Shown: positions 45,623 to 64,000 of the stretch, one piece after another
How positions within the stretch are numbered: the stretch's first letter is position 1
Layout of the letters: the number at the start of each line of letters is the position of its first letter
Assembly (NCBI GenBank): GCA_965219095.1
Contig: CBDCMT010000001.1
Location: 672,001 to 736,000 of the forward strand
From: Bdellovibrionales bacterium
GTDB lineage: Bacteria > Bdellovibrionota > Bdellovibrionia > Bdellovibrionales > UBA1609
DNA: 64,000 nucleotides
Direction: 5' to 3'
Translations under genes and position numbers: made by a program
The notes under the pieces: generated by a model
The model's input: the letters and a program-made list of their open reading frames with translations, nothing else
The model's database searches: none
Told to the model about the DNA's origin: nothing

Positions 45623-46870
45623 GTAACTGCTCACCTACATTGTTCAGTTATCCCTAACTTTAGAGCTGTTTTAAGATAAAAGTCTTGCTCTTACAGATTT
45701 TCTTTTAAATACTTTTTTCAAATGACAATAAATAAGACCTCCATCAGAAATGAGATTGAAAATATAAGAAGTGACTTTGATAAGCTTGCAAAGAAAGGTT
45801 CTGTGCCTACTGAGATTTCTGTGATTGTTGAATCTCTCTTTAAGGTTGTGAACATTCTGATTGTTGTGCTTTTAGAAAAACAGGTTCGAAAAAATTCCAG
45901 CAACAGCGGTCTTCCTCCTTCGCAAGATTTTAATCGTCAAGGGAATCGTAATAAGAAGGCTAGGGAGAGTCAAAAAAAGGGCTCTAGGCTTATCAGTAAA
46001 GATACAAAACAGCGAGGAGACTGTCTTTTCCTCAGAGTGTTCTCAGTGTGGGATGTGTTTAAAGACAGCAGAGGTAAAAAGCCTTGAAAAGCGTAAAAAG
46101 ATTGATATTTTTTATGAAATTCAGACCCATACTGTAACTTCTGAAGTTAAGGATTGTCCCTCATGTGGAGCTAGAAATAAAGGTCAATTCCCTAAAGGTA
46201 TGAGTGGTCCTCTTCAGTATGGTGTAGGCATTAGAGCTTCCATCATCAATTTCATTATAGTTCAGATGCTGTCTTTTAGAGCGTGTTGGGGAACATTACA
46301 TGGGGCTTATAGGTCGAATGATTTCTCCTGCAGTTATGTTGAGATACATTGCTGAATTAGGAGAGTTTCTTAAAAGTTGGGAAGAGCAGATGAAAGAAAA
46401 GATACTTGAATCAGAGGTCATTCATGTTGATGAGACCTCTATGAGGGTTAAGGGTAAAAACTACTGGATTCATACTTATAGTTCAGGAGAATTAGTCTTG
46501 CAGTTTCTCCACCTTTCAGGTGGAAGGGAAGCCATAAAAGATATTGGTCTCTTGGATAGATATGGAGGAGTGCTTGTGCATGATTGTTGGAGTCCTTACT
46601 TTTGTTATGATAAGATAACTCATGCTTTGTGTGTGGCTCACCTTTTGAGAGAGCTTAAATTTATAGAAGAAAGCAATGGATTCAAATGGGCTACAAATCT
46701 CAAAAAACTTCTTAAAGAGACTGTGGAGTTAGTTCATAAAAAAGAGTCAAGAGTTCTGACTCAAAAAGAGTACGAAACTCTTCAGAGAAGGTATAGGAGT
46801 ATTCTTACAAAAGGCTTAAAAGAGCTTCCAGAATTTCCTAAGAAAAATGGCAAGAAAGGACGAATAAAAG
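45623..46870 (+). mobile_element. Second IS66 copy, frameshifted and 3'-truncated
   Basis: Same left IR and sequence as the 10463 copy; lacks the IS3 insertion. Confidence 0.9.
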
Positions 46871-46899
46871 TGTAATAGACGTTATATGATCTGACAGTT

Positions 46900-47258
46900 A
46901 CCCTTTATGCGATCATCAAACTTTGGAGGTTTTCCAGGACGAGGATCATCTTCAAGAGCTTTTTTCAGCCCAGAATTCTCATAGTTTTTTTGGATGTTGA
47001 AAACAGTTCTAGGAGTTATCTCTAAGTAATCTGCTGTCTCTATGGCAGTTAAATTTTTGTTCCTTAAGTTTAGAACATTGGCTCGATATATGGCTCTTGG
47101 ATTTTTAGACTTCTTTATAATTTTAAGAATTTCTCTCTTATCTTTTGGCTTTAATAAATTTAACATATGAGTATTAAAACATAATAAAAAAAAATTAAAT
47201 AAAATGACCTGGATTAAAGGCTTGAAAATTGTGAAAAAAATTACTGGTCAGAACACTA
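46900..47258 (-). mobile_element. IS630-like 5' remnant (HTH; ORF 46882..47166)
   Basis: RANVL...ETADYLEITPRTV...DDPRPGKPPKF; end tagtgttctgaccag. Confidence 0.75.
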
Positions 47259-48067
47259 GAAGTAAAAATCAGAGTGCCCAGGACATTTTAATTGAAGAGT
47301 TAGGCAACCTTAGTGAAAAGAAATCTCAGGTAGAAGAAGAGATCAAAAAGCTCAAAAGGGAAAAGTCTCAATTCAAAGACAACATCATTTCAGCAGAGAA
47401 TATCTTTTCAGCACTCAAGGTTGTAAATAAGACTCTGCCCAAAATCACTCCCAGACAGCAAAAAGAGCTTCTCTCAGAGATCATCAAGAAGGTTGTGGTC
47501 TATAAACATGGCTTAGGCGTGGAGTATTTTGGGGCCAAAAAGTCTAAAATAGGAAATTGGGTTCAAGCGGTCAAAAATCCGCACAGTGTTTGTGTTGGTC
47601 GAGAAACCAGTAAATTGTGCGAGTTTCCCTATCTGTTTGATTTTCTTAGTCTTTTTCCAATTCCATACAGAGCAGAAAACCATAATTTCAGCGAGCTTTA
47701 TAAAAAACATCAATTATCCCTAAAACAAATAGCGGAAAAAACAGGAGTTAGCAAAAGCACTGTTTTGAAAAAACTTAAGAAAGAAAATGTAAGCAGAAGA
47801 GCACAAGAAGATGCCCAGACAAACCCTAAGAATTACCGTTCTCCTAATCCACCTTTTGGTTTTAGAGTTATTGAAGGGAGACTAGTGCAAAATAGAGCAG
47901 AAATTCACATTTGCAGGAAAATTATCCACATGAAAAATGATGGCCTATCTTTTAGTGCTATCAGTACCCAGCTAACAAAAGAAGGCATTAAAAACAGGAA
48001 AAAAACAACCTACTGGTGTCACAAGCATTTAAAAAGAATTTATAATTACTGGAAAGATAAACTATAA
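47259..48067 (+). pseudogene. Large serine recombinase C-terminal remnant, in frame with an HTH and a Recombinase-like domain
   Basis: Coiled coil and QQKELLSEIIKKVVV; LSLKQIAEKTGVSKSTV; PPFGFRVIEGRLV...GLSFSAISTQLTKEGIKNRK...W; 5' end replaced by IS sequence. Confidence 0.7.
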
Positions 48068-48284: not shown

Positions 48285-48683
48285 CTACTGTCTAGTGATT
48301 TTTTTAAAAATTTTTTGCCACCATGATATTCTTTTTATCTTTCTCTGTATGTCCGTTTCTTTTTCATGTCTATCTCTAAGCCTACCTATATATATTTCTT
48401 CTTCGGACCATTTTTTGCACCATTTAGTTTTACTCTCCAATATCATATAATGACTTTTACAAGGAAGTCTCCAGTTTCCTATTGATGGTAGTACACTTAT
48501 AGTATCTCCATCATATTCAACTCTCCACTCACTTCGACCTAATGGAAGGCTTACTTCAGACCCACAACCGCATGCACACATATGTTCAATGAGTCTATGT
48601 TTTGTAGATATATACAAATCTCCTTCATTCATTTTTTCAGGCATATTTTCTATCCATATAGTTCGCCAAATAGTAGTTTTCAT
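48285..48683 (-). CDS. DUF6527-family protein of Bub-type ubiquitin-like operons
   Basis: HMCACGCG...PSIGNWRLPCKSHY. Confidence 0.85.
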   Translation of the reverse strand: MKTTIWRTIWIENMPEKMNEGDLYISTKHRLIEHMCACGCGSEVSLPLGRSEWRVEYDGDTISVLPSIGNWRLPCKSHYMILESKTKWCKKWSEEEIYIGRLRDRHEKETDIQRKIKRISWWQKIFKKITRQ

Positions 48684-48745
48684 TTTTTTCTCAATCAGTA
48701 TTAATTAATGTTTTATCTAATGCTTTTCCTTACAAATTGCTTTAA

Positions 48746-49963
48746 CTATTTACCCATCAGTATTGTTCCTGAAGGCGTGGCATAATTTAGTAAGTTGTGG
48801 TCGCTATCTCTATCACTTCTATAAATTCCTTTTTTTATCTTCCACTCTATAATGGCCAATGCTGCCCCTAACATATTTAGTTCCGCTGTTTGAATATTGC
48901 TTCTATAAATATCAATGATTGGTTGTTGATTATTTTGTACAATATTCGTTGAATTTCTTGAATTATTCACTTGATATTCTTTCTCTATTTTTACCATACC
49001 TACAAGTTGACTATCATTCTCTCCTTCCTTTTCAACTCCGATGCCAACACTCAAATGAAACACTCCTAATTCATTACATTTTCTTTGAATTTCTCTTCGG
49101 CTATTTAGATTATCTACGGCAATAAATACTGTGTTATAGTTTTTTAAAGTATCTAAATTTTTGTTATCAATTTTATTCTTGTGTGTGTGTAAACCCTTTG
49201 CTCTAATGTTTTTATAAGACTTCTCATGCCAATCGACCTTTGCCATGCCAAACTCGTTCTTATGTACGGCCCCTGCTAGTCTAAATGCACTATCAGTTTC
49301 TATAGTGTCATGATCATATAAATGTAACTCTTTGATATTTGTTTTTACAAGTACATCAACTAAATAAGACCCTGTACCTCCTACTCCTATAACTGCTACT
49401 ATTTCATCAGAAATTTTATCTTCTATTCCTTTTGTACCATTACGGTATTGGCTAGAATTAATATATACAAATCTTTCATCTGAATTATCTTTATTTACTT
49501 CTCCATTTTTTGATCGCTCTAAAACTCCTGGAGTTTTACTTTCAGCATGAAAGCTAACTTCCTTTATATATGTTGTTATCTGCTCATAATAATCGTTATA
49601 CGCTCTTTTCTGTCCATCTTGTTTTATCATTCTTGACCACTGCATATATACGACAATATCCTCTCCAAGGTTATGTCCATTGGTCCATTCTGCACAGCAA
49701 AGATCGTCTTTCATACTTTTTCCTTCAGAGTTATAGGGTATTTCTCCAGTCCACCATACAGTATGTTCTGTTGGTTGCTGTGTTTCCTGCCTTTGAGAGT
49801 CAATATTTAGACTGGTTACTATATCAGCATACTTAATTTCGTTTTGAGATAAATAAGGAACATTCTTTATAATTAAATAGCCACCTCTTATTTCTATATT
49901 ATACTTTTCACTTATTAACTTAGAGAGATCTTTACTATGATTTATCAGTGAGTATGACATCAA
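48746..49963 (-). CDS. DUF6791-like N-terminal domain fused to a ThiF/E1 adenylation domain
   Basis: IKNVPY, YNDYYEQITTY; VAVIGVGGTGS, LYDHD, FIAVD, YRSNIQTAELN. Confidence 0.88.
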   Translation of the reverse strand: MMSYSLINHSKDLSKLISEKYNIEIRGGYLIIKNVPYLSQNEIKYADIVTSLNIDSQRQETQQPTEHTVWWTGEIPYNSEGKSMKDDLCCAEWTNGHNLGEDIVVYMQWSRMIKQDGQKRAYNDYYEQITTYIKEVSFHAESKTPGVLERSKNGEVNKDNSDERFVYINSSQYRNGTKGIEDKISDEIVAVIGVGGTGSYLVDVLVKTNIKELHLYDHDTIETDSAFRLAGAVHKNEFGMAKVDWHEKSYKNIRAKGLHTHKNKIDNKNLDTLKNYNTVFIAVDNLNSRREIQRKCNELGVFHLSVGIGVEKEGENDSQLVGMVKIEKEYQVNNSRNSTNIVQNNQQPIIDIYRSNIQTAELNMLGAALAIIEWKIKKGIYRSDRDSDHNLLNYATPSGTILMGK

Positions 49964-50180
49964 ATTTCATTTCATTCACAATTGGTGTTGTTTCTCCTTC
50001 CTTAAGAATTCCTTCCGGTCTATCTTTTGGCCCATCTTTCCATCTAACATCATATTCATAATCTGGCCCTTGTTTCCCATCAGGATAAGCACGATTTACT
50101 ACTTCAGCAAAACTTATTTTGTCATCTGATATTTTATATTCTCTACCCCTAATATAAATTAAAATTCCTGCTTCACTCAT
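49935..50180 (-). CDS. Ubiquitin-like (Multi_ubiq-type beta-grasp) protein
   Basis: IYIRGREY...ISFAEVV...EGIL...MKFDVILTDKS; ggagg RBS before MSEAG; overlaps the E1 gene. Confidence 0.85.
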   Translation of the reverse strand: MSEAGILIYIRGREYKISDDKISFAEVVNRAYPDGKQGPDYEYDVRWKDGPKDRPEGILKEGETTPIVNEMKFDVILTDKS

Positions 50181-50215
50181 TTTGACCTCCATTAAATTTA
50201 TAAATATTTATTAAA

Positions 50216-50742
50216 TTAATTTCCACCCTCTCCACCAACAACATTGCTTCTTCCATCTGACACTAGTTTAAAAGGCCTAAAAAAGTCAAGCAAGCTATTT
50301 TGTTCATAAACCTCTAAGATATCGCTTTCTGTAAGATTGAGATGAGTATATTTCTTGCCAAGCTCACTTAATAAAAAATCCACATTAAAAAAATCTTCAT
50401 TTTCTCTAACAAGCCTTGTTATTTCAGCTCTTAGATGAAATATCATAAGCTCACTATCACCCTCAAAGCCATAATCCTCAGAACCATCAGAAAGGGAATA
50501 AATTCCATAGTCACTCTTATCTTTCTCGTCCTTACTTTTAGGAGGGTTTGTGCCACCTTCTCCTCCAAGGATAATAGGCCCCTCACAAGGATTTCTTTAT
50601 CAATTGAAGGAAAACAATTACTTTCTACTTCTGAACCTTCATAGATTTTAATTTCTGCACTTTCATTTAGCTCATTATTTACAAAGCCCAAAGCAACTTG
50701 AGTGAAGATAAGAGTTAATGTTGCAAATAGTATTTTTTTCAT
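50216..50742 (-). pseudogene. Secreted protein (about 175 aa) with two GGEGG motifs; single-base frameshift near 50597
   Basis: One added A joins ...CFPSIDK to RNPCEGPIILGGEGGTNPP...SELMIFHLRAE...NVVGGEGGN; signal peptide; aaggag RBS. Confidence 0.75.
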
Positions 50743-50834
50743 TTTAATTCTCCTTTGTTATTTTTTGGTTGTGATAAAGTATCTGCTGTTATTGTGACAA
50801 ATGTTGGCTCTCCATCTAAATCCTCTTCCTTATA
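50739..50834 (-). pseudogene. C-terminal remnant of a paralogue of regulator 52677..53525
   Basis: YKEEDLDGEPTFVTITADTLSQPKNNKGELK* aligns with YSEEDENGEHSFFILGSDTLTQPEISTGEEQ*; ATGA overlap with the next gene. Confidence 0.8.
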
Positions 50835-50835
50835 A

Positions 50836-51498
50836 CCTGAAATCTGTTAATTTTGGTACTAGGTTTTTATTCGGCCCTCGTAATGCTTCGCATTAGTCGG
50901 AGGGGATTTTACAACTTAAAGCTGTGTGGGATTTCTTGAGTCACATTAAAAGCTTTATAAAGGCTCTTTTGCTTACCGGATAACTCTCCTAATCTTGTTT
51001 GTCCTGTGGCCAATTTATAGAACTTTAATTTGTCTAAAATTTTATAGACCTCTGTTTTTGAAAATTTCTTGTACAGATTCTTTTCTTTCATCACATTGTT
51101 TATGTGAGAGATTAAAATTAAAGCTATAAAGTTAATAAATAAACTTCCTCTCATGGTTTGTAGCGAATGAGTCCTCGCTCGCTTTTCATTTATATCATGC
51201 TTGAAAGACAAAAAAATCTTTTCAATGCTATCTTTGTTTCTATACAACTCTAAGATCTCATCTTTTGAAAGCTTTTGATCGCAATCGGTAAGTAAAATCA
51301 ACACACCCATTTTTCGCATCTGCTTTTTAATATAATCCAAATCTCTCGAAATAAAAAAACCCCCCTTTTTCTTGACAACTGTAAAGCGCTTCTTGGCACT
51401 CTTTAAGGTTTCTGCTATGCACTCATCGCACTCTTTCTTTGTCCTAAATTTCTTCTTAGAAAATCTTCGCTCAAAACAATCCAACTTCTCTATCTTAG
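50836..51498 (-). mobile_element. IS1634-family 3' remnant (ORF 50909..51484)
   Basis: GVLILLTD, LYRNKDSIEKIF, RGSLFINFIALIL; cctga terminus. Confidence 0.8.
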
Positions 51499-51528
51499 GA
51501 AACTGAAAACCTAAACGGAAGCACTATA

Positions 51529-51599
51529 TAATGAATACGCTTAGATTTTCCGGTCGATTCTCTAGAGAAAAAACCCTGAAAACCTAAACGGAAGCACTA
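51529..51599. mobile_element. 71-bp MITE (TA duplication), preceded by a partial copy ending at 51526
   Basis: Near-identical to 33222..33291. Confidence 0.85.
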
Positions 51600-51646
51600 T
51601 ATACCATGAATCACCCTGAATCCTAACACCTAAGGATAATAAAGTG

Positions 51647-51730
51647 TTCAGAGCTGAAAGGGATTCTCTTCAATTTTGTTCAATTCTGAAAGCTTTTTTT
51701 ATAGACTAAAATAAGGTTTTTCACGCTGAA
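51647..51730. promoter_or_regulatory. Candidate operator array TTCA-N(3-4)-TGAA x3
   Basis: ttcagagctgaa 51647, ttcaattctgaa 51679, ttcacgctgaa 51720. Confidence 0.55.
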
Positions 51731-51775
51731 AGAGATTTCTGTTTATTTTCTTCTATCATGACAACCCTTATTAAA

Positions 51776-52354
51776 TCATTTTTTTCTAAACTTAATATGA
51801 GGTTTTAGAATAAATTTTAGCTGTTCGATGTCTTGTTCAATCTTTTTTTTATGCCCATTAGAGCCATAGATATTTTTTAAATTGTTAGCGACCACTTCTG
51901 CCCCACGGGTATCAACATAACTTTCTGACCATGTCTCTTTAATTTCTATTATTTCATTATATTCTATCAAAGCTTTCTTAATAGTGTTTTCTATGTCTCT
52001 TAGGAGTTCAAATGCTTGATCTTCTAAAAAAATTTGAACACTTTTAATGCTAGAAGAAAGAGATTCCAAATCTTTTTTATAGAAATCCATTTTTCTAATT
52101 ACTTTTTTCCTCATCCTTTCATATTCTTTTAAACCCTCATCTTCCTGATTCGTACTTTCAAGGGGAGGGAAGAATGAATTATAAACTTCTTTGATTCTTA
52201 ATGCACAATAAAGAGCCTCAGAGGCAACTTCTGCATTCTTCTTTAATAAGGCTTCTTTTTTCCAGTTATTAAATGAATAATATCCAAGCCAGACTAAACC
52301 TAAGCCTCCTATTCCTGAAAAAAGCAAACCTATTGCAGAAAGAAAATCACACAT
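51776..52354 (-). CDS. Hypothetical protein with N-terminal TM helix and helical body
   Basis: 192-aa ORF directly downstream of 52378..52680. Confidence 0.7.
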   Translation of the reverse strand: MCDFLSAIGLLFSGIGGLGLVWLGYYSFNNWKKEALLKKNAEVASEALYCALRIKEVYNSFFPPLESTNQEDEGLKEYERMRKKVIRKMDFYKKDLESLSSSIKSVQIFLEDQAFELLRDIENTIKKALIEYNEIIEIKETWSESYVDTRGAEVVANNLKNIYGSNGHKKKIEQDIEQLKFILKPHIKFRKK

Positions 52355-52377
52355 TTGAATATTTGTGAATATAATAT

Positions 52378-52680
52378 TTAGTTTCCACCAACAGTCCCCA
52401 TATCAACTCTCATACTAGAAACCTGAAACTCGTTTCCTAATGAGAATTTAGAAAGGTTTTGTTCTTCTAATGCAATTTCCTCAACCAAAATAGGGTTATA
52501 CCCTAAATCAAGGAGTCTTTCTTTGTTTTCCTCAACACTTAAATCCTTATTATTTTCAACTTCAAAGCTAATTTCTAAAGCTTCATAAAAAAGGTCAGAT
52601 ATTTCTTCAAATTCAAAAGAGGTGTATCCAAAAGACTGAAAGCTAAATAACAAAATTAAATAAAAAATCATATTCTTCAT
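52378..52680 (-). CDS. Small secreted acidic protein ending MGTVGGN
   Basis: Signal peptide (SFG|Y), acidic body, ATGA overlap with the regulator, ggag RBS. Confidence 0.8.
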   Translation of the reverse strand: MKNMIFYLILLFSFQSFGYTSFEFEEISDLFYEALEISFEVENNKDLSVEENKERLLDLGYNPILVEEIALEEQNLSKFSLGNEFQVSSMRVDMGTVGGN

Positions 52681-53525
52681 TGTTCTTCTCCTGTAGATAT
52701 TTCTGGTTGAGTAAGGGTATCTGAGCCTAAAATGAAAAAAGAGTGTTCTCCATTTTCATCTTCCTCAGAATAGAGTTTTGTTAGTTCATCAATGGCATTT
52801 TTCATAATTTCTTTCTGCCTCCTTCTTTTTTCAGAGCTTAACTTCCCACAAAGAGTTTTAAATTGATTAAGTCCTTTATCTACTTCTGTGGGTTTTAAAT
52901 AGTAAGCTAAGTCACTTATCATTTTCTTTGTAATGGTATTGTCAATATACTGATTTTGATGTTGCCCTGTAATCCTTCCAGTTTCATCTTTTACTAAAAT
53001 CTTATCTTTTAACATTTTATCTAAAACCTCTAAAGCAAAAGAGTCTAAAGTGTTGGCAATTTCACTTTTTGTAGTTCCACCCTTATTATAAGCTAAAACA
53101 GTAATAATTCGCCCTTCTCTTGTCTGCAAATAGCTTTCCTTAATGGGACTGATTATGGCTTCAAAGTTTACAGTCTCAAGCCCTTCAAAGGATTTTCTTA
53201 AAAATTTCCCCAGCTGTCCTTTTGTGTTTTGAAGAATGTCTTTGATTGTATTTCCGCGATAAACGCCAAAAACAATTTTTCTAACAACCTCTGCTGAAAT
53301 CTTCTTCTTTGTCACCCCGGTTAATAGGTAGTGAATAGTTGTAGAGCTTAGGCTATTTCTAGCACAAAAGCCATTAGCTGAAATGTTAGGATTCTTATCT
53401 AAATAGCTTTGTAAGACTTCTTTTAGTTCAGAGATCATTTCTGAGTAAATAATATCTTTTTTATCTCTCGTAGAGGCATAAGGGAGGCGTTTTTCTACTT
53501 TTCCAAAATTTGTATTCTCAATCAT
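52677..53525 (-). CDS. HTH regulator (XRE-like HTH, winged helix, C-terminal domain; TIGR02147/DUF4423-like)
   Basis: NPNISANGFCARNSLSSTTIHYLLTG; GTTKSEIANTL...LDKMLKDKIL; aagga RBS before MIEN; family by recognition only. Confidence 0.65.
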   Translation of the reverse strand: MIENTNFGKVEKRLPYASTRDKKDIIYSEMISELKEVLQSYLDKNPNISANGFCARNSLSSTTIHYLLTGVTKKKISAEVVRKIVFGVYRGNTIKDILQNTKGQLGKFLRKSFEGLETVNFEAIISPIKESYLQTREGRIITVLAYNKGGTTKSEIANTLDSFALEVLDKMLKDKILVKDETGRITGQHQNQYIDNTITKKMISDLAYYLKPTEVDKGLNQFKTLCGKLSSEKRRRQKEIMKNAIDELTKLYSEEDENGEHSFFILGSDTLTQPEISTGEEQ

Positions 53526-53591
53526 AAAAGTTCCTTTTGAGATTTGATATAACACTAGAAAAAAGAAATCAAGCCTCTTGAAAGAATATTG

Positions 53592-53654
53592 TTCCAACTA
53601 GAAAACTTTTTACTTACTTTTTTCCATTTGGAAAGTGTGTTATTCCACATGGAA
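53592..53654. promoter_or_regulatory. Candidate operator array TTCCA-NN-TGGAA x3 between divergent genes
   Basis: ttccaactagaa 53592, tttccatttggaaa 53621, ttccacatggaa 53643. Confidence 0.65.
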
Positions 53655-53817
53655 AGGTTTTTTTAAAAACTATGCATCATTTTTTCTAAGTGGGAAACTA
53701 TTTAGAATCATTAAGTTTTTTCTCTTGATTTTTTCCTTTGAAGAAGCTTAAAACATTCAAACTATAGAAAAACAAAGACTAGATCTCTTCTTCATTTATC
53801 AATCAAAAGGAGAAAAT

Positions 53818-54321
53818 ATGAATAAAAAAGAACTAGAAGTCTTAAGAAGAAAGTCTAAAAAATGGTCACCACAAGAATGGGAAAGCTATCTTAAAGCCAT
53901 AGAGGTAGAGCGTTCTGAGAGTTTGATTTCCCCTAAGAAGCATGAAAAATTACAGAAGAAGGATAACCTCTTTCTCTGGAGTGATGATGTCTCTGAAGAG
54001 AAGTCTGACGAATTTAAAGTGCTTGCAAAAAAAGCTTTAAACCAGCTTACATTTAAGCAAAGAACTGTTATTAAAATGATCTTTTGGGACGGACTCTCTG
54101 AAAAGGAGATTTCAAAAAAATTATGCCTCTCCACTTCTTCCGTGAGAGACCGAAAAGCTCAAGGATTACAAAAGGTTAGAGCCTATTTTAAGGGCTTCAT
54201 ACCGACCGTGTCCCCCTATATAGGGGCTAAAAAAACTTCGAACGCCCTCAAACCCATTTCTCAAGCCAGTTTATCTCATGCTATTTTTGCGTCTAAAAAG
54301 GGGAGACATCATGTTGCTTGA
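53818..54321 (+). CDS. Sigma-70 region-4 HTH protein
   Basis: ALNQLTFKQRTVIKMIFWDGLSEKEISKKL; aaggag RBS. Confidence 0.8.
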   Translation: MNKKELEVLRRKSKKWSPQEWESYLKAIEVERSESLISPKKHEKLQKKDNLFLWSDDVSEEKSDEFKVLAKKALNQLTFKQRTVIKMIFWDGLSEKEISKKLCLSTSSVRDRKAQGLQKVRAYFKGFIPTVSPYIGAKKTSNALKPISQASLSHAIFASKKGRHHVA

Positions 54322-54532
54322 AGAAAAACTCCACAAAGCTTTATGGAACCTAAACCCAGAGGAAAAAGTTATTATCCATTGTCGATTCTGGGAGCACATG
54401 AGTATTTTAGAAATTTCACATTTTCTAGGTTACTCATGGGATGAAACCTATCAACTACTCAATGAAACTCTAAAAGAGCTAAGAGAAGAGCTTGCAGATT
54501 ATCAAGATTATTCACTAAAGAACGCTTCGTAG
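54311..54532 (+). CDS. Second sigma-70 region-4-like HTH protein
   Basis: ALWNLNPEEKVIIHCRFWEHMSILEISHFLG; ggggag RBS. Confidence 0.75.
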   Translation: MLLEEKLHKALWNLNPEEKVIIHCRFWEHMSILEISHFLGYSWDETYQLLNETLKELREELADYQDYSLKNAS

Positions 54533-54552: not shown

Positions 54553-54996
54553 ATGAATTCAAATATATTAAAAATAGAACCTAAATTTTCAGAAAAGCCA
54601 GAGGCAAAAACTTTTGAAATCTTTAAAGGAGAAAGAGATAACTATGGGAAAGTCAGAAGAAAGCGAACACTTGGCCAAGCTAGAATTTTTGAAGGAGCAA
54701 AGACTTACCATGTGTTTATCAAAACTCTTTTAAGGGCAAAATTTTATCTTTTACCTGAAAACAGGAATCCTCAAAAATATGAGTATGTCATTTTAACAAG
54801 AGAGCCAAGTCAGACTCCTGATAAAAAGTACTACTGGAATAGTGTGGGAGAAGGAAAGATTCTCATGGGACAAAATCAAGGTCTTATGAAGCTTGAATGG
54901 GATTTTTTTGGAAGTGACGATATTTATATGAAACTCGATCCTATGGAAGAAAAAGCACCAGAGAGTATTGACTTAAAGGGGGCTAGTAATGAATAA
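54553..54996 (+). CDS. Hypothetical protein of the conjugation operon
   Basis: aggagg RBS; overlaps the pilin gene. Confidence 0.7.
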   Translation: MNSNILKIEPKFSEKPEAKTFEIFKGERDNYGKVRRKRTLGQARIFEGAKTYHVFIKTLLRAKFYLLPENRNPQKYEYVILTREPSQTPDKKYYWNSVGEGKILMGQNQGLMKLEWDFFGSDDIYMKLDPMEEKAPESIDLKGASNE

Positions 54997-55288
54997 GGCT
55001 TATCGGTTTAAAAAAATTGTAGGCTTTCTATGTCTTACAGGAGCTTTTTATTTGCTCCTGCAAGAGCCAGTATTTGCAAGCCTTGAGAGTTCACTGGTCA
55101 GCATCAAATCAAGGCTTACAGGGGTCATCTTGCCCCTTGTTTCTGTGATTGGGCTTGTAGTAGCAACCTTTAGCTTTATTACAGGAAATCCTAATGCAAA
55201 ACAACATATTATCTATGCTCTCGTGGGGTCGGCGATTGGGTTTGGAGCTCAGTCAATCATTGATTTTATAAGTTTTACTATTTACTAA
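54989..55288 (+). CDS. TrbC/VirB2-type conjugative pilin
   Basis: Signal ending VFA followed by two hydrophobic helices; upstream of virB3/B4. Confidence 0.75.
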   Translation: MNKAYRFKKIVGFLCLTGAFYLLLQEPVFASLESSLVSIKSRLTGVILPLVSVIGLVVATFSFITGNPNAKQHIIYALVGSAIGFGAQSIIDFISFTIY

Positions 55289-56180: not shown

Positions 56181-56528
56181 ATGAGCTTACTCACATCAAA
56201 AACCCCTCGACAACTTGAGGGAAAACTAAAACTACTAGGCTTTGAACTTATAGACTTACTTTTAATTTTTCTATACCTCTCAATCAGCAACCTATTATTC
56301 GGACAAACCACGCTTAAATTTCCAATTGTTTATATAGGCTCAATAACCCTTGCCATAACTCTCTACTTTACAAAAAAAGGCAAACCAGAAAACTATCTCC
56401 AAGATAAACTCCAAAGCCTTACTAACCCAAGTACATACTCCGCCAATCTTCCTGACACCAAATACAAACCTTATTTTAAAAGGGAGAGTTATGAACAAAA
56501 ACCCAACACCTCTAAAGAACTTCTCTGA
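56181..56528 (+). CDS. VirB3/TraL-like membrane protein
   Basis: Two TM helices, KGKPENYL; overlaps virB4; aggagg RBS. Confidence 0.65.
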   Translation: MSLLTSKTPRQLEGKLKLLGFELIDLLLIFLYLSISNLLFGQTTLKFPIVYIGSITLAITLYFTKKGKPENYLQDKLQSLTNPSTYSANLPDTKYKPYFKRESYEQKPNTSKELL

Positions 56529-58944
56529 ATTTACTACCGAACACTCTCTCGCCGAACAACTTCCCTTTTGGGATTTCTTTGATAACTCCGTTGCTTTATC
56601 TGACGGCACTCTTGTTCAAGGACTAAAGCTAGAAGGCTTAGCAATTGAATCTAAAACTCATGAAAAAATAAACTCTCTTACTCTAGCTTTGCGTTCTTTT
56701 TTAAACGGACTTATTGACAATACAGAAATTAGCTTCTTCATAAAAAGCCACTCTGATCACAGCACAATCTTAGAAACTCACGAAAAACTAAAATCACACA
56801 ATAAAAACATCAATGAAATATCAAAAGACAGGCTAAATCTTTTAAAAAAGGAATGTCTTAATGAAAACCTTTTAAGAAAAGACATTTACGTCTTTATCTA
56901 CAACAGACCAGAAAATATAGCTAACAAAAAATCACTCTTTGACTTTTTCAAAACTCGCAAATCTTTCCAAAGCATTACACAAAAAAAACACGAACGAAGA
57001 TTAAAAAACACTCAAACTCTCACCACTTCTATTGCCGACACACTTTCTACTTCTGGAATAAAAAGCAAAACCTTAAGTAAAAAAGAAATTAAAAACCTTA
57101 TTTATGAATTTTTAAACCCAGAGAGGTCAAAGCACCAACCAACCCCTAAAGAAAATACCTCCCACAAAGAGCAAGTCTTTAAACCAAAAGAGTTAGAAAT
57201 TATTCCTGAACTTTCTTGCACCTCTCCTCGTGAAGAGCTTATATTTTCTGATTTTGTTACTGGACACAAAGACCTTTTCTATGATGAACACTACCACAGA
57301 ATTTTAACTCTAAAAACTCTACCTGAATACACTCAAAGCTCACTCATTGAAAGGCTTATAAATTTTCCTATGGCATTTTTTCTATTCATTCATATTAAAG
57401 TGCCCAATCAATCAAAAGAGCTATCCTTACTACAAATGAAAAGACGAATGGCACATTCTATGAGTTTATCTCGAAACGAAAGAGTTAGTGATATTGAAAG
57501 TGAATCTCAGGCCGACTCTATAGAGGAATTAATCAGAGACGTCATAGAAACTGGGCAGAAGATTTTCTTTTTTCAAATGGCAATTAAATTGCAGGATAAA
57601 AGTCCAGATAACTTAGAAGCAAAATCAAAATCCATAATGAATGTTTTTCGCCAGCTAAATGGAGCCGAAGGATTTGAGGAGACTTTGGCAAGCTTTAAAG
57701 TTTTTAAAACCCTTATTCCTTTTGGCAATTTAACTATGGCAAGGCCTAAAAAAATAAAAGCAAATAACCTTGCTGATTTTTTACCAGTTTATCAAAGCTA
57801 CACAGGAGTAGATCAAAAACCAATTTGTCTCTTTAGAAACAGAGAAAAAGCCCTTGTTAAATATGATCCATTTCATTCTAAACTTTCTAACTACAATTCT
57901 TTGGTTACAGGCTCCAGTGGATCGGGGAAGAGCTTTTTAAACAATCTTATTTTGCTTCAATCTATCAAGGAAAACTCCATGAATTTTATTATTGATATTG
58001 GCGGAAGCTACAGAAAAATTTGCAAACTAATAGGAGGTCAGTATGTTGATGTTGCCCCATCATCTAATAACTCAGAAGAAAATCCCAATTCACTCTCGTT
58101 TAATCCGTTTGCATTACAAGGAAACGCAAAGGCTCCAAATTCAGGAAAGATTAAATTCTTATTGGCACTTATGGAGAACTTATTAACGGATGTTGAGGGA
58201 GAGAAACTTCCCAAATTAGAACGTGCTTTATTAGAGGAAAAAATTGATGAACTTTATAAGTTCAATAAAACTCCAAGACTCTCGGACTTTAAAAATCTAC
58301 TTAAAAATTCAAATGATAAAAAACTTCAAAACTTTGCTAAAATGCTCTATCCTTGGACAAGTTCAACTCCTTACGGAAAACTTCTAGACACTCAAGGAAA
58401 CTTTAAAACTGAAAATGATTTTGTAGTTTTTGATCTTAAAGGATTATCAAATTACCCAGACCTTCAAAGTGTTATGATTTTAATTATCACTGATTTTATT
58501 TTACAAAGAGTAGAATCCAACGACACTAAAACAACTTTAAAAAAGAAACGCATTTTAATGGATGAGTGTTGGGAGCTACTTAAGGGAAAGGCTAGTTCAA
58601 ATTTTATGGAGTATTGTGTGCGAACTCTTAGAAAAACTGGATCTGGCATAACATTCATCACTCAAGGGATAGAGGAAATTGCAAATCATGAAATAGGCTC
58701 TGCAATCTTAAACAACACTGCCACGAAATTTATCCTCCAACAAAAAGGAGACCTAAAACCTGTTGAGAAGATATTAAAGCTTAATGAGAGGGAACTCTCC
58801 CTTGTAGCAAGCCTTCAAAGTAAAAAAAGAGAGTTTTCAGAGGCTTTTATGATTCAGGGAGAAGAAAAAACTGTCATAAAGCTCTATCCCTCGCAAAAAG
58901 AGTATTGGATAGCCACCAGTGATGCTGAAGATAAATTAAAATAA
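56491..58944 (+). CDS. virB4: VirB4/TraC-type conjugation ATPase
   Basis: GSSGSGKSF, IIDIGGSY, DECW, RTLRKTG, ITQ. Confidence 0.9.
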   Translation: MNKNPTPLKNFSEFTTEHSLAEQLPFWDFFDNSVALSDGTLVQGLKLEGLAIESKTHEKINSLTLALRSFLNGLIDNTEISFFIKSHSDHSTILETHEKLKSHNKNINEISKDRLNLLKKECLNENLLRKDIYVFIYNRPENIANKKSLFDFFKTRKSFQSITQKKHERRLKNTQTLTTSIADTLSTSGIKSKTLSKKEIKNLIYEFLNPERSKHQPTPKENTSHKEQVFKPKELEIIPELSCTSPREELIFSDFVTGHKDLFYDEHYHRILTLKTLPEYTQSSLIERLINFPMAFFLFIHIKVPNQSKELSLLQMKRRMAHSMSLSRNERVSDIESESQADSIEELIRDVIETGQKIFFFQMAIKLQDKSPDNLEAKSKSIMNVFRQLNGAEGFEETLASFKVFKTLIPFGNLTMARPKKIKANNLADFLPVYQSYTGVDQKPICLFRNREKALVKYDPFHSKLSNYNSLVTGSSGSGKSFLNNLILLQSIKENSMNFIIDIGGSYRKICKLIGGQYVDVAPSSNNSEENPNSLSFNPFALQGNAKAPNSGKIKFLLALMENLLTDVEGEKLPKLERALLEEKIDELYKFNKTPRLSDFKNLLKNSNDKKLQNFAKMLYPWTSSTPYGKLLDTQGNFKTENDFVVFDLKGLSNYPDLQSVMILIITDFILQRVESNDTKTTLKKKRILMDECWELLKGKASSNFMEYCVRTLRKTGSGITFITQGIEEIANHEIGSAILNNTATKFILQQKGDLKPVEKILKLNERELSLVASLQSKKREFSEAFMIQGEEKTVIKLYPSQKEYWIATSDAEDKLK

Positions 58945-60223: not shown

Positions 60224-61631
60224 TACCAATTACAGAAATTAATTCGACATTTTTATGTTCAAATTTAAAATTTTAAAATTGACTTAAGGAAAAGTTTCAA
60301 TTAGGAGGCTTTAAAAAAGTTTTTTTTGAAGGGAGGTTGAGTTTTCATAAGATATGTTTATTTTATGTATATCTATTGTTGTGTGAATCGATTGATGGGT
60401 TAAAATAAGTGTAAAAAAGTGAGGTTAAGATGTAAAATGAAAAAAATCAGTTACGCAATTTAATTTATAGGTTCAAATTAATTTACAAGCTTGATTCATC
60501 TTGTTGTTTTGCCCAAGATCGAGTGCATAATTTTTTAATCCTGCCCTCCTGATCGCAAAAAGTATTCCAGGCCTCACAACAAGTATTCAGTATATGGTCA
60601 TAGTTTTTAAAACATGCATTCGATAATTTGATCCTTCGTAATTGTTGCCAGACTTGTTCCATGGGATTTAATTCTGGACTATAAGGAGGTAAAGGCATCA
60701 GGGATAAATTCTTAGGAACTATCAAAGTCTCTGTGGTATGCCAACTGGCTCTGTCCATTAAAACAATTCCATGATAGTTTTCTTGAATATTTTTAGATAT
60801 CTCATCTAAGTGAATTTGCATCATCCCTGAATTACATTCCGGTAAAATCCAAGCACAGCCTTTATCTTTATCCGGACAAACTGCTCCAAAAATATAAGTG
60901 GATAAAAATTGTCTTTGTCTCACAACTCTAGGTCGTGTGCCTTTTCTTGCCCAAATCCTGCTTAAAGAACCTTGCTGGCCTATTCTGCATTCATCCTGCC
61001 ACCAAATCTCTATTTTATGAGTCTGAATCTTTTCCTTTATTTTCTCCACCTCTTCTGGAAAATGTTCCTTAAACTGTTCCATAGCTTCTTGTGAAGTTTT
61101 AGGATGAAGAGAACGACCACTGATCCATACAATATTAAGACGGTCTAAAAGAGCATAAACCCCAGAAAGAGAATAGCAACAGTCAAATTCATCTGCTAAA
61201 AGTTCCTGTATTCCCTTTGCTCCTATGCTTCCTCCTTCTCTTGTGTCTTGAATTTCATCTAACTTGATTTTGAAGTTCTCTTCTTCTGTCACTGGCAAAC
61301 GGGGTTTACGTCCTCTGCCTTTTCGATCTATCAATCCCTCGTAATCAAAGTCTACAAAAGACTGTAACCAGGATTTGATACTGTGACGGTGATACAAAAC
61401 CATACCTGCTGTTTCTTGAATCGATTTTCCTTTTTGCATATGGTGCAAAGCTTGAAGTTTTATCTTGATGTTGGCACTTCTTTCCACTTTGTAAGTAGCT
61501 AGAAAATCATACCCTTGAATCTGTGTAACTAAATCTTTTTTCGACATGACTCTAAAAATGTAGCAGAGTTTGATTAAAAAGCCAGGACGCTATGCGTTAA
61601 AAGAATGTCGAATTAATTTTTGGAAATGGTA
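60224..61631 (-). mobile_element. Complete IS630-family element
   Basis: IRs taccaattacagaaattaattcgacat / atgtcgaattaatttttggaaatggta; TTA on both sides. Confidence 0.93.
60483..61547 (-). CDS. IS630 transposase
   Basis: QDECRIG, MDRASWH, LPPYSPELNPMEQVW. Confidence 0.95.
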   Translation of the reverse strand: MSKKDLVTQIQGYDFLATYKVERSANIKIKLQALHHMQKGKSIQETAGMVLYHRHSIKSWLQSFVDFDYEGLIDRKGRGRKPRLPVTEEENFKIKLDEIQDTREGGSIGAKGIQELLADEFDCCYSLSGVYALLDRLNIVWISGRSLHPKTSQEAMEQFKEHFPEEVEKIKEKIQTHKIEIWWQDECRIGQQGSLSRIWARKGTRPRVVRQRQFLSTYIFGAVCPDKDKGCAWILPECNSGMMQIHLDEISKNIQENYHGIVLMDRASWHTTETLIVPKNLSLMPLPPYSPELNPMEQVWQQLRRIKLSNACFKNYDHILNTCCEAWNTFCDQEGRIKKLCTRSWAKQQDESSL

Positions 61632-62064
61632 TTAGTAATGGTGAAGGATCTCAAACTTGGGCAAACGGTTCTTGGGGTAATTGTGTGCTTTCAAGATGTC
61701 ATTCAGGTTACCAAGAACACACAGGTGCTTGCATTTTAAGTTGTTCTGATGATCAACATATTGAAAATGAAGAATGTGTTCTTAATACTCGTAATTGCAG
61801 TATTCTTAACGGTCATGGGACTCAAACTTGGAGCAGTAATTCTTGGGGTACTTGTACTTTTTCAAGCTGTAATTCAGGTTACTATGAAGAAGGTGGTTCC
61901 TGTATTTTGGACACAGGAACTACCCGTCACATCTGCTTTGCGTTTAACTCAGATAGGACGGAAATTACTGATTACTTTGGTTTGGATAATAATGGCAATG
62001 TATGTCCCAGAGATGTTATTATACCTGTAGGGATTTTTGCTATTGGGAGAAGTGCTTTTGCAAA

Positions 62065-64000
62065 TAATCAGTTAACTTCTGTAACAATTCCAGATAATGT
62101 GACATCTATTTGGAGAATTGGAGAAGATGCTTTTGCAAATAATCAGTTAGCATCTGTAACAATTCCAGATAGTGTGACATCTATTGGATACAGTGCTTTT
62201 GAAAATAATCAGTTAACTTCTGTCACAATTCCAGGTAATGCGAGTTTTATTGGAAGCAGTGTTTTTGCAAATAATCCTTTAACATCAGTTACGATTTCAC
62301 ATGGTTCTACATCTATTCGGAACAGTTTTTTTGCTGGCAATAATTTAACTTCTGTAACAATTCCAGATAGTGTGACATCTATTGGGAGAAGTGCTTTTGC
62401 AAATAATCAGTTAGCCTCTGTAACAATTCCAGATAGTGTAACAAGTCTTTCAGGGTTTTCTTACAATAATTTAGCCTCTGTAACAATTCCAGATAGTGTG
62501 ACATCTATTGGGCACAGTGCTTTTGCAAATAATCAGTTAGCCTCTGTAACAATTCCAGATAATGTGACAGAGATTGAGCACAGTGCTTTTGCAAATAATC
62601 AGTTAACTTCTGTAACAATTCCAGATAGTGTTACATATATTGGGAATGGTGCTTTTGCAAATAATCAGTTAGCCTCTGTAACAATTCCAGGTAATGCGAG
62701 CTTTATTGGGCGCAGTGTTTTTGCAAATAATCCTTTAACATCAGTTACGATTTCACATGGTTCTACATATATTAGGAGCAGTGCTTTTGCAAATAATCAG
62801 TTAACTTCTGTAACAATTCCAGATAGTGTTACATCTATTTGGCCCAGTGCTTTTGCAAATAATCAGTTAGCCTCTGTAACAATTCCAGATAGTGTTACAT
62901 ATATTGGGAATGGTGCTTTTGCAAATAATCAGTTAATTTCTGTAACAATTCCAGATAGTGTGACATCTATTGGAGAAAGGGCTTTTGCAGATAATCAGTT
63001 AGCCTCTGTAACAATTCCAGATAGTATTACGTCTATTGAATACAGGGCTTTTGCAAATAATCAGTTAGCCTCTGTAACAATTCCAGATAGTGTTACATAT
63101 ATTAGGAGCAGTGCTTTTGCAAATAATCAGTTAGCCTCTGTAACAATTCCAGATAGTGTTACATCTATTGGGCCCAGTGCTTTTGCAAATAATCAGTTAG
63201 CCTCTGTAACAATTCCAGATAATGTGACAGAGATTGGGCACAGTGCTTTTGCAAATAATCAGTTAGCCTCTGTAACAATTCCAGATAGTGTGACATCTAT
63301 TGGGAATGGTGCTTTTGAAAATAATCAGTTAGCCTCTGTAACAATTCCAGATAGTGTTACATATATTGGGAATGGTGCTTTTGCAAATAATCAGTTAATT
63401 TCTGTAACAATTCCAGATAATGTGACAGAGATTGGAGAAAGGGCTTTTGCAGATAATCAGTTAGCCTCTGTAACAATTCCAGATAGTATTACGTCTATTG
63501 AATACAGGGCTTTTGCAAATAATCAGTTAGCCTCTGTAACAATTCCAGATAGTGTTACATCTATTTGGCCCAGTGCTTTTGCAAATAATCAGTTAGCCTC
63601 TGTAACAATTCCAGATAGTGTTACATCTATTTGGCCCAGTGCTTTTGCAAATAATCAGTTAGCCTCTGTAACAATTCCAGATAGTGTTACATCTATTGGG
63701 AATGGTGCTTTTGAAAATAATCAGTTAGCCTCTGTAACAATTCCAGATAATGTGACATCTATTAGAGACAATGCTTTTGCAAATAATCAGTTAGCCTCTG
63801 TAACAATTCCAGATAGTGTTACATCTATTGGGAATGGTGCTTTTGAAAATAATCAGTTAGCCTCTGTAACAATTCCAGATAGTGTGACATCCATTGGGAG
63901 CAGTGCTTTTGCAAATAATCAGTTAACTTCTGTAACAATTCCAGATAGTGTTACATCTATTGGGAATGGTGCTTTTGAAAATAATCAGTTAGCCTCTGTA
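62065..64000 (+). repeat. 66-bp coding tandem repeat (22-aa BspA/LRR_5 unit), about 29 units visible
   Basis: Consensus [22 protein letters not shown]. Confidence 0.95.

Follow-up and report, generated by a model that had tools for sequence, protein, structure and literature searches.

We describe a compact regulatory module in a 64,000-nucleotide stretch of a Bdellovibrionales bacterium genome (assembly GCA_965219095.1, contig CBDCMT010000001.1, positions 672,001 to 736,000; hereafter the window, numbered from its first letter). In this module, the gene for a helix-turn-helix (HTH) regulator overlaps the gene for a small exported protein, here called the partner, that ends in Gly-Gly-X. The window carries one intact and one broken module, both on elements that, judging by their gene content, are like integrative and conjugative elements (ICEs). 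An original prediction, made from the letters of the window, had read the two modules as a peptide-signaling switch. We consider it about 85% probable that they represent a real, conserved switch module of this ICE family. That the exported partner also feeds back on the switch as a signal is a tentative addition, to which the sequence evidence gives somewhat less than an even chance.

A regulator gene overlaps the gene for an exported partner

Module 1 consists of the following features.

52677..53525, minus strand: regulator 1, 282 amino acids (aa); XRE-type HTH and winged helix, remote DUF4423-superfamily member by profile comparison
52686..52691, minus strand: Shine-Dalgarno-like hexamer GGAGAA, 5 nucleotides (nt) before the partner 1 ATG and within the final codons of regulator 1
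52378..52680, minus strand: partner 1, 100 aa; signal-peptide-like N terminus, acidic helical middle, and predicted flexible tail ending GTVGGN

The open reading frame (ORF) of regulator 1 spans 52677..53597, and an in-frame ATG at 53525 agrees with the start of its homologues, giving the 282-aa protein. Its TGA and the ATG of partner 1 overlap as ATGA at 52677-52680; in related regulators, G-x-L-Q or G-E-E-Q codons immediately precede this overlap. Partner 1 opens with MKN and a hydrophobic stretch, has an acidic mature part (Asp plus Glu, 24%; isoelectric point, 4.1), and closes with MGTVGGN. The ATGA overlap, signal peptide, acidic spacer, and MGTVGGN end by which module 1 had first been described were all found again when the sequence was reread. 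Signal peptides, here and below, were called by eye and with a crude script rule. An AlphaFold 2 (AF2) model of partner 1 from nine sequences has moderate confidence (mean predicted local distance difference test score [pLDDT], 66.3) and predicts three helices and a tail of about 20 residues (79-100) with a pLDDT of <50. No Pfam or NCBIfam family matched the protein.

The pair and its Gly-Gly-X end are conserved

Genome and contig scans, together with a profile search of the window's own genome (G000), yielded 11 ICE-type modules across five genomes or contigs: two in the window, one each on contigs C2 and C1 of G000, one in G039, four in G597, one in G440, and one on a metagenome contig. One G597 module stops at a contig edge. 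In all of the remaining 10, which have visible downstream DNA, the gene directly downstream on the same strand encodes a signal-peptide protein of 80 to 179 aa ending in Gly-Gly-X (X = N, G, T, or R), and the ATGA overlap is present in 8 of them. The bodies of these partners are barely alignable, the penultimate Gly-Gly being the sole invariant. The codons of the Gly tail vary synonymously between loci while the residues stay, so it is the peptide, rather than the DNA, that selection maintains. The same observation rules out a DNA element inside the Gly codons, such as an operator half-site. The original prediction had expected that homologous regulators would be coupled to secreted genes and that the Gly-rich tail would be conserved, and both expectations are borne out: coupling was found wherever the downstream DNA is visible, and the Gly-Gly-X end, with its synonymously varied codons, is the only conserved part of the partners.

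The pair persists even where the regulator has diverged very far. A third ICE-like element in G000 (C1:126000-145000; locus L061) has a regulator that is ∼15% identical, ATGA coupled to a 111-aa exported protein ending in GGDGAGGG; its palindromes are of another type, and an insertion sequence (IS) breaks into its set of sigma-like, pilin, and (split) VirB4 genes. Within a genome, co-resident tails differ (GTVGGN, GGEGGN, and GGDGAGGG in G000; GGGEGGR and GGTEGGG in G597). Such ends are rare elsewhere. GG[NR] ends occur in 5 of 7239 G000 ORFs (≥50 aa), 3 of the 5 being module proteins, and GGEGG is present in three G000 ORFs, of which two are module proteins and the third is a recombinase-like fragment. 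This rarity outside the modules rules out a general C-terminal sorting tag for G000.

It is extremely improbable that the small ORFs are not real genes or that their Gly tails arose by chance. Such an explanation would agree with the partners having no homologues outside the modules, but the ORF, signal peptide, coupling, and end are kept in 10 of 10 modules with regulators down to ∼15% identity. The synonymous variation of the tail codons also speaks against it, and the only broken copy sits in a module destroyed by an IS.

The family itself is sparsely represented in databases. A word-index search of 5.8 billion proteins with regulator 1 returned the protein itself and one metagenome protein (64% identical), and the same type of search with a 179-aa partner found only itself and the fragment in the window. 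Searched exhaustively with a profile, 1.84 billion representatives yielded 7 matches at an E value of ≤1e-30 and 152 at ≤0.001. Some of the collected regulator genes are disrupted: on the metagenome contig (L039, 5935-6756), the regulator is split into 71-aa and 200-aa ORFs next to an intact partner gene, and one G597 regulator has an internal TGA.

Module 2 is a relic with an intact copy in the same genome

The second module of the window did not appear as a regulator ORF and is made up as follows.

50739..50834, minus strand: regulator 2 relic, the last 31 codons and stop; the remainder is replaced by an IS fragment
50216..50742, minus strand: partner 2 pseudogene, ATGA coupled to the relic, in two frames, with internal ILGGEGGT and the end VVGGEGGN
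50836-51488: IS1634-family fragment with >10 genome copies at 98-99% identity
51483-51604: short genome-wide repeat containing 28-nt direct repeats (51503-51603)

The 31 residues of the relic (minus strand, 50742-50834) align to residues 252-280 of regulator 1 with 14 of 29 identical (E = 4e-8), and they match the family profile at an E value of 3.9e-9. An intact copy of module 2 lies elsewhere in the same genome (G000:C2:364871-366237), where a 276-aa regulator is ATGA coupled to a 179-aa exported protein. The last residues of this regulator are those of the relic, and its partner has the same internal and terminal GGEGG motifs. Over 661 nt, window positions 50192-50835 are 84.1% identical to the intact copy, relative to which the frameshift of partner 2 is one base missing in an A-run at ∼50594/50595. 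Module 2 is a real relic, cut by the IS1634 fragment and broken by one missing base. The reading first given of it, with its 31 residues, ATGA overlap, frameshifted secreted gene, and GGEGG copies, stands in every part.

Palindromes between the module and the transfer genes

Upstream of regulator 1, the following features make up the divergent intergenic region and the transfer genes beyond it; the last entry lies upstream of module 2.

53592-53605, 53621-53634, 53643-53656, and 53682-53698, divergent intergenic region: palindrome array of the TTTCC(N4-6)GGAAA type, candidate operators of regulator 1
53818..54321 and 54278..54532, plus strand: sigma-70 region-4-like genes at the head of the type IV secretion system (T4SS) operon
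Further T4SS operon genes, plus strand: a 147-aa gene; TrbC/VirB2 pilin, 54989..55288; 115-aa membrane protein, 56181..56528; VirB4/TraC, 56491..58944
51647-51691: two TTCAN4TGAAA palindromes, 32 nt apart, mirroring two boxes 31 nt apart in the intergenic region of the intact C2 copy

This arrangement, with the regulator divergent from the sigma-like pair followed by a ∼147-aa gene, the TrbC/VirB2 pilin, and T4SS genes, recurs at 9 of the 10 loci examined. At the G440 locus, the sigma-like/T4SS layout was not found within the DNA fetched. The 64 kb contain three TTCCN4GGAA sites in all (1.6 are expected), and two of them fall within 53592-53698, 21 nt apart. Among the 59 loci fetched by then, the N6 form of the box was found only in homologous loci and always in this intergenic region, and spaced palindrome arrays occupy every intergenic region of the related loci. 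A scan for sigma-70 promoters and terminators over 51600-53900 gave no excess over shuffles and no hit in the switch region.

Across loci, the sequence of the box changes along with the putative recognition helix of the regulator. Three G597 loci (L062, L072, and L073) have boxes of the TTTACAG..TGTAGAA type rather than TTTCC..GGAAA, and their regulators carry Trp at the putative recognition-helix position where most compared relatives have Asn. Also in G597, two elements have sigma-like genes with similar N termini (by eye), regulators that are 56% identical, and different boxes. As the boxes differ with the regulators while the sigma-like N termini are similar, this co-variation points to the regulator as the binder of the palindromes.

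The original prediction assigned a palindrome array to each module. For module 1, the array is real, with its four boxes. For module 2, the result is mixed: the 28-nt direct repeats at 51503-51603 are accounted for by the genome-wide repeat at 51483-51604, but the TTCAN4TGAAA pair remains. In the intact copy, this motif has 4 matches counting both strands, compared to 0.26 expected, and the boxes at 51647-51691 are probably a remnant of the switch region that module 2 once had.

Divergent switch regions with a repressor and an activator are known from temperate phages and ICEs, and restriction-modification systems have controller (C) proteins. The module resembles both in placing an XRE-type HTH protein beside spaced palindromes between divergent operons and in a box that varies with the recognition helix. 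It differs in adding a winged helix and a conserved tail to the regulator, a sigma-region-4-like activator side, and a cotranslated exported protein.

The regulator belongs to a remote branch of the DUF4423 superfamily

An AF2 model of regulator 1 from 90 sequences (pLDDT, 88.9) predicts an XRE-type HTH, a winged helix, a long helix, and an extended, conserved C-terminal tail. Residues ∼22-110 match XRE-type HTH domains (Z score, ∼7), and residues ∼122-210 match ArsR/MarR-like winged helices, with a beta-hairpin in the winged helix. The best single fold match is 4g6q, a protein of unknown function (Z, 9.9; root mean square deviation, 5.9; 142 residues aligned), and C-protein structures of restriction-modification systems are among the other matches. 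A Foldseek search of the PDB with the whole regulator gave nothing at an E value of ≤0.001.

Individual family models miss this branch. Regulator 1 has no PF14394 or TIGR02147 match even at E values up to 0.01 (Pfam) or 1 (NCBIfam), and 30 relatives have no Pfam or NCBIfam match except for a weak HTH_3 in 10 of them. A profile-profile comparison (hhalign) of 90 family sequences with 17 PF14394-bearing ORFs gave a probability of 98.4% and an E value of 1e-14 over 221 colinear columns. By this comparison, the family is a remote branch of the DUF4423/TIGR02147 ("Fsuc_second") superfamily, as had been guessed from the window; the guess is right at the superfamily level. The length and N-terminal HTH of the regulator fit the DUF4423 pattern (∼250-300 aa), and ESM Atlas look-alikes include DUF4423 clusters at 0.92, which we take as a lead only.

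DUF4423 matches occur in 52 of 61 related genomes, with 12 in G000 and up to 32 per genome searched. With these proteins, the module regulators share their length, colinear architecture, class-wide expansion, and usual coupling to a downstream exported protein. They differ in escaping the Pfam and NCBIfam models, in being ICE borne at a transfer switch, and in having small partners marked by G-G-X at the C terminus, where other partners have N-terminal Gly runs or large domains. In the literature searched for DUF4423/TIGR02147, the only mention found was in a table of one paper, and no function was found described. Searches on ICEs of Bdellovibrio and Bacteriovorax, on HTH/signal-peptide pairs of Bdellovibrionota, and on Gram-negative peptide pheromones likewise returned no description of the module.

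The region behind the HTH is modeled as a winged helix, one long helix, and the tail, and neither the AF2 model nor the fold matches show an array of tetratricopeptide repeats (TPRs). Matches to the phage receptor AimR are weak (E = 0.007) and cover the N-terminal HTH-bearing region of two distant relatives. On the predicted structure, the regulator is therefore outside the RRNPP family, the TPR receptor being replaced by an HTH and a winged helix; the "non-RRNPP" label first given to it is correct.

Coupling and Gly motifs extend across the superfamily

Coupling to an exported protein is not confined to the ICE clade. Of the 16 regulator loci in G000, 12, including three near-identical copies, have a tightly linked signal-peptide ORF downstream, compared to 163 of 1710 background long ORFs. 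Among the 20 DUF4423 loci fetched from relatives, 17 regulator ORFs had both flanks, and 9 of these 17 had a coupled exported ORF under the crude signal-peptide rule (background, ∼8% per side). Under the same rule and background, 15 of 27 more distant relatives of regulator 1 have a linked exported ORF, 4 downstream and 11 upstream. The partners rarely match described families: 21 of 22 partners matched no Pfam family, and none of the 22 matched an NCBIfam family.

Partners of the nearer relatives often share a short motif as well. The pattern [GAS]GE.{0,2}G[GASN] occurs in the coupled neighbor of 24 of 45 related regulators (38 of the 45 have any coupled ORF) but in 10 of 5217 G000 ORFs; the pattern was defined post hoc and the related genomes are not independent, so this contrast is indicative and not a test. 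Its position depends on the clade. In a sister clade (L064 and L066-L071; family f22), with regulators in 35 of 100 genomes of one family, ATGA-coupled exported proteins of 119-140 aa carry GE[VLF]TGAG immediately behind the signal peptide and, in most cases, again ∼35 residues later. In another clade (L010-L013, L017, L019, L022, L023, L025, L026, and L028), the partner is encoded upstream and overlaps the regulator start; these proteins have 200-306 aa, several cysteines, and SGEYSGG- or GGEFSGG-type motifs close to the C terminus. In the ICE clade, the motif is at the very end. The motif thus stays with the regulator where the gene order or the protein scaffold has changed.

A related feature, seen in many partners, is a free-end Gly run, which is C-terminal in the ICE clade and stands after the signal peptide in small chromosomal partners of G000. 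There, small acidic exported proteins (104-130 aa) lie behind short or split DUF4423-like regulators, and their mature part opens with a Gly run (GGGSG, GGSG, GGGS, or GGGGGE). They are encoded at the following positions.

C1:283287-283601: small Gly-run partner
C1:429335-429727: small Gly-run partner, three copies
C2:1033107-1033469: small Gly-run partner
C2:1811160-1811504: small Gly-run partner

The location of the motif at the mature N terminus, the C terminus, or both is usual for processing, anchoring, or sorting signals. The motif could thus be recognized by a dedicated enzyme, such as a Gly-Gly-cleaving peptidase or a transpeptidase, and the partner could be an accessory protein in the periplasm that serves the T4SS or pilus, next to whose genes the module lies. 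We regard this as quite improbable. The motif is confined to regulator partners, both in G000 and among chromosomal non-ICE paralogues without a T4SS nearby, and no candidate enzyme is conserved beside the modules.

What the exported partner may do

As we envisage it, the module is very probably the switch operon of an ICE family in Bacteriovoracia-like predatory bacteria. The regulator would bind the palindromes and so set its own expression and that of the sigma-like activators, and hence that of the transfer genes. The exported protein would be a working partner of the regulator and not random cargo, with the Gly-(Glu)-Gly motif as its active part. After export, the whole partner or a motif-bearing fragment would report back on the switch, either directly after uptake or via a host factor, and ICE-bearing cells would thereby sense themselves or their neighbors. 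For direct uptake, a route via OppA-type proteins is conceivable, as G000 has four OppA-type (SBP_bac_5) binding-protein genes. We favor signaling because the motif follows the regulator through gene order and scaffold and is otherwise rare, which would be hard to explain for a mere target, and because the best precedents for so tight a linkage between a cytoplasmic regulator and an exported protein are signal-receptor pairs.

Several observations weigh against such feedback. Both elements of the window show signs of decay: ISs have inserted, the recombinase is truncated, and the series of T4SS genes is cut short. The tail of partner 1 lacks the Glu of the Gly-Glu-Gly motif, and the regulator model contains no known peptide-binding fold. 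The longer ICE partners, with 2 to 4 cysteines and conserved blocks within the sequence, probably fold and would thus be more than pro-peptides. The original prediction that the tail co-varies with the regulator holds only weakly: co-resident tails do differ, but a GGEGG core is common to regulators that are only 35-74% identical, whereas Phr and arbitrium peptides are diversified. Finally, the exported genes coupled to bona fide DUF4423 regulators are large and diverse (lipoprotein-like, 300-480 aa, one with an FGE-sulfatase domain), and such diversity is as compatible with a plain regulator-and-target cassette as with signaling.

Such a cassette, without any feedback, is a serious possibility. 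The regulator would be the ICE repressor, the exported protein would be an envelope, exclusion, or surface protein co-expressed in the resting state, and the Gly end would serve for linking or docking. Phage repressor operons carry exclusion genes in a comparable way. The counts given above agree with this, as across the superfamily the regulator is usually coupled to an exported protein of almost any kind (9/17 and 12/16), and a tail that stays the same while regulators diverge would be easier to understand if it served a conserved external target than if it were a private signal. What a cassette leaves unexplained is why otherwise unrelated partners share a short motif that is rare elsewhere in the genome, why nothing but this motif is conserved among the ICE partners, and why a cytoplasmic regulator is so strictly coupled, over 4 nt, to an exported protein.

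The most specific form of the signaling interpretation is a Gram-negative analogue of the RRNPP systems, which include RapI-PhrI of ICEBs1, Rap/Phr of plasmid pLS20, PlcR-PapR, and the phage pair AimR-AimP and rely on TPR-type receptors. To our knowledge, all known cases in which a peptide controls conjugation or lysogeny come from Firmicutes and their phages and use such receptors. The likeness is in gene anatomy: a regulator gene is followed, often with overlap, by the gene for a small Sec-exported pre-protein whose conserved part is C-terminal, and the pair sits on a mobile element beside the genes that it would control. The module differs in its regulator, which lacks a TPR domain and has the XRE-type HTH and winged helix of the DUF4423 superfamily; in its host, a diderm Bdellovibrionota bacterium; in its partners, which are longer (80-179 aa); and in its Gly-rich, barely diversified tail. 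One paper concerns the pLS20 system (PMC3814332).

In a strict analogue, a C-terminal peptide would be cut from the partner, reimported, and bound by the C-terminal domain of its cognate regulator, with cognate pairs insulated from one another. We consider this version, a subset of the feedback proposed above, to be unlikely. It would suit the shared anatomy on a mobile element beside a transfer switch, the differing tails of co-resident modules, and the presence of OppA-type proteins. But the regulator has neither TPRs nor another known peptide-binding domain, and with a core motif that is nearly the same across the regulators compared, insulation would rest on the flanking residues. A cut C-terminal peptide also sits badly with the N-terminal or internal motifs of the sister clades and with partners of up to 270-300 aa.

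The gene anatomy of the module is RRNPP-like, but its hosts are diderm predators that carry it on ICEs, and the fold of its regulator is unrelated. A broader and rather doubtful extension is that DUF4423-like regulators and coupled exported proteins with a short Gly-Glu-Gly motif at a free end form an unrecognized class of peptide- or protein-based self- and neighbor-sensing systems in diderm predators, one lineage of which was captured by ICEs for the timing of transfer. If this is true, conjugation would for the first time be seen under peptide-type control outside the RRNPP systems of Gram-positive bacteria. For a superfamily of unknown function, the module offers handles in the candidate operators that co-vary with the recognition helix, the partner motif that follows the regulator, and the co-resident variants within one genome. 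Even if the partner is only a target, the switch region of an undescribed Bdellovibrionota ICE family is defined.

Element context, cargo, and mobile debris

The genes behind and around the two modules of the window are as follows.

51776..52354, minus strand: cargo behind partner 1, 192 aa with one N-terminal hydrophobic helix; only a subthreshold Pfam match
48285..50192, minus strand: cargo behind module 2, a ubiquitination-like operon of an 85-aa Multi_ubiq-like protein, a DUF6791+ThiF E1-like protein, and a DUF6527 protein
47204..48067: 287-aa C-terminal piece of a serine recombinase, preceded by IS-type repeats
60483..61547: IS transposase (DDE_3)

That module 1 diverges from a conjugation operon and that the modules have cargo downstream, as originally proposed, is confirmed, the T4SS genes by Pfam. 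Control of defence genes, another part of that proposal, is without support, as the genes behind the partner differ at every locus (a membrane protein, the ubiquitination-like operon, an ATPase-like protein, and others). In the operon behind module 2, the Multi_ubiq match of the 85-aa protein is below the Pfam gathering score. DUF6527 is mentioned in two 2024 preprints on bacterial "Bub" operons (10.1101/2024.11.21.623953 and 10.1101/2024.11.21.623966). We dropped by reasoning the idea that the C-terminal Gly-Gly-Asn is a ubiquitin-like or adenylated substrate of the adjoining E1-like enzyme, since the partners carry signal peptides. Of the six loci with flanking ORFs read, only two have an E1-like gene nearby, namely the module 2 relic and the metagenome module (L039).

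The sister element on C2 of G000 carries VirB8-like, TrbI/VirB10-like, and coupling-protein genes and a 606-aa serine recombinase (Pfam), together with a second, 436-aa recombinase-like ORF that resembles, by eye, the recombinase piece of the window. Past VirB4, no further T4SS genes were found in the window; the ORFs that come next match no Pfam family and are followed by the DDE_3 transposase. Behind this IS, positions 61685-64000 (plus strand, running off the window) encode a very large BspA-type leucine-rich-repeat protein (LRR_5, 752 bits). Repeats abound throughout G000 and also fill part of the window at 46800-47260; a 69-nt unit (46800-46868) and the ∼50-120-nt repeat at 51483-51604 both recur dozens of times, in nearly identical form, across the two contigs of the genome.

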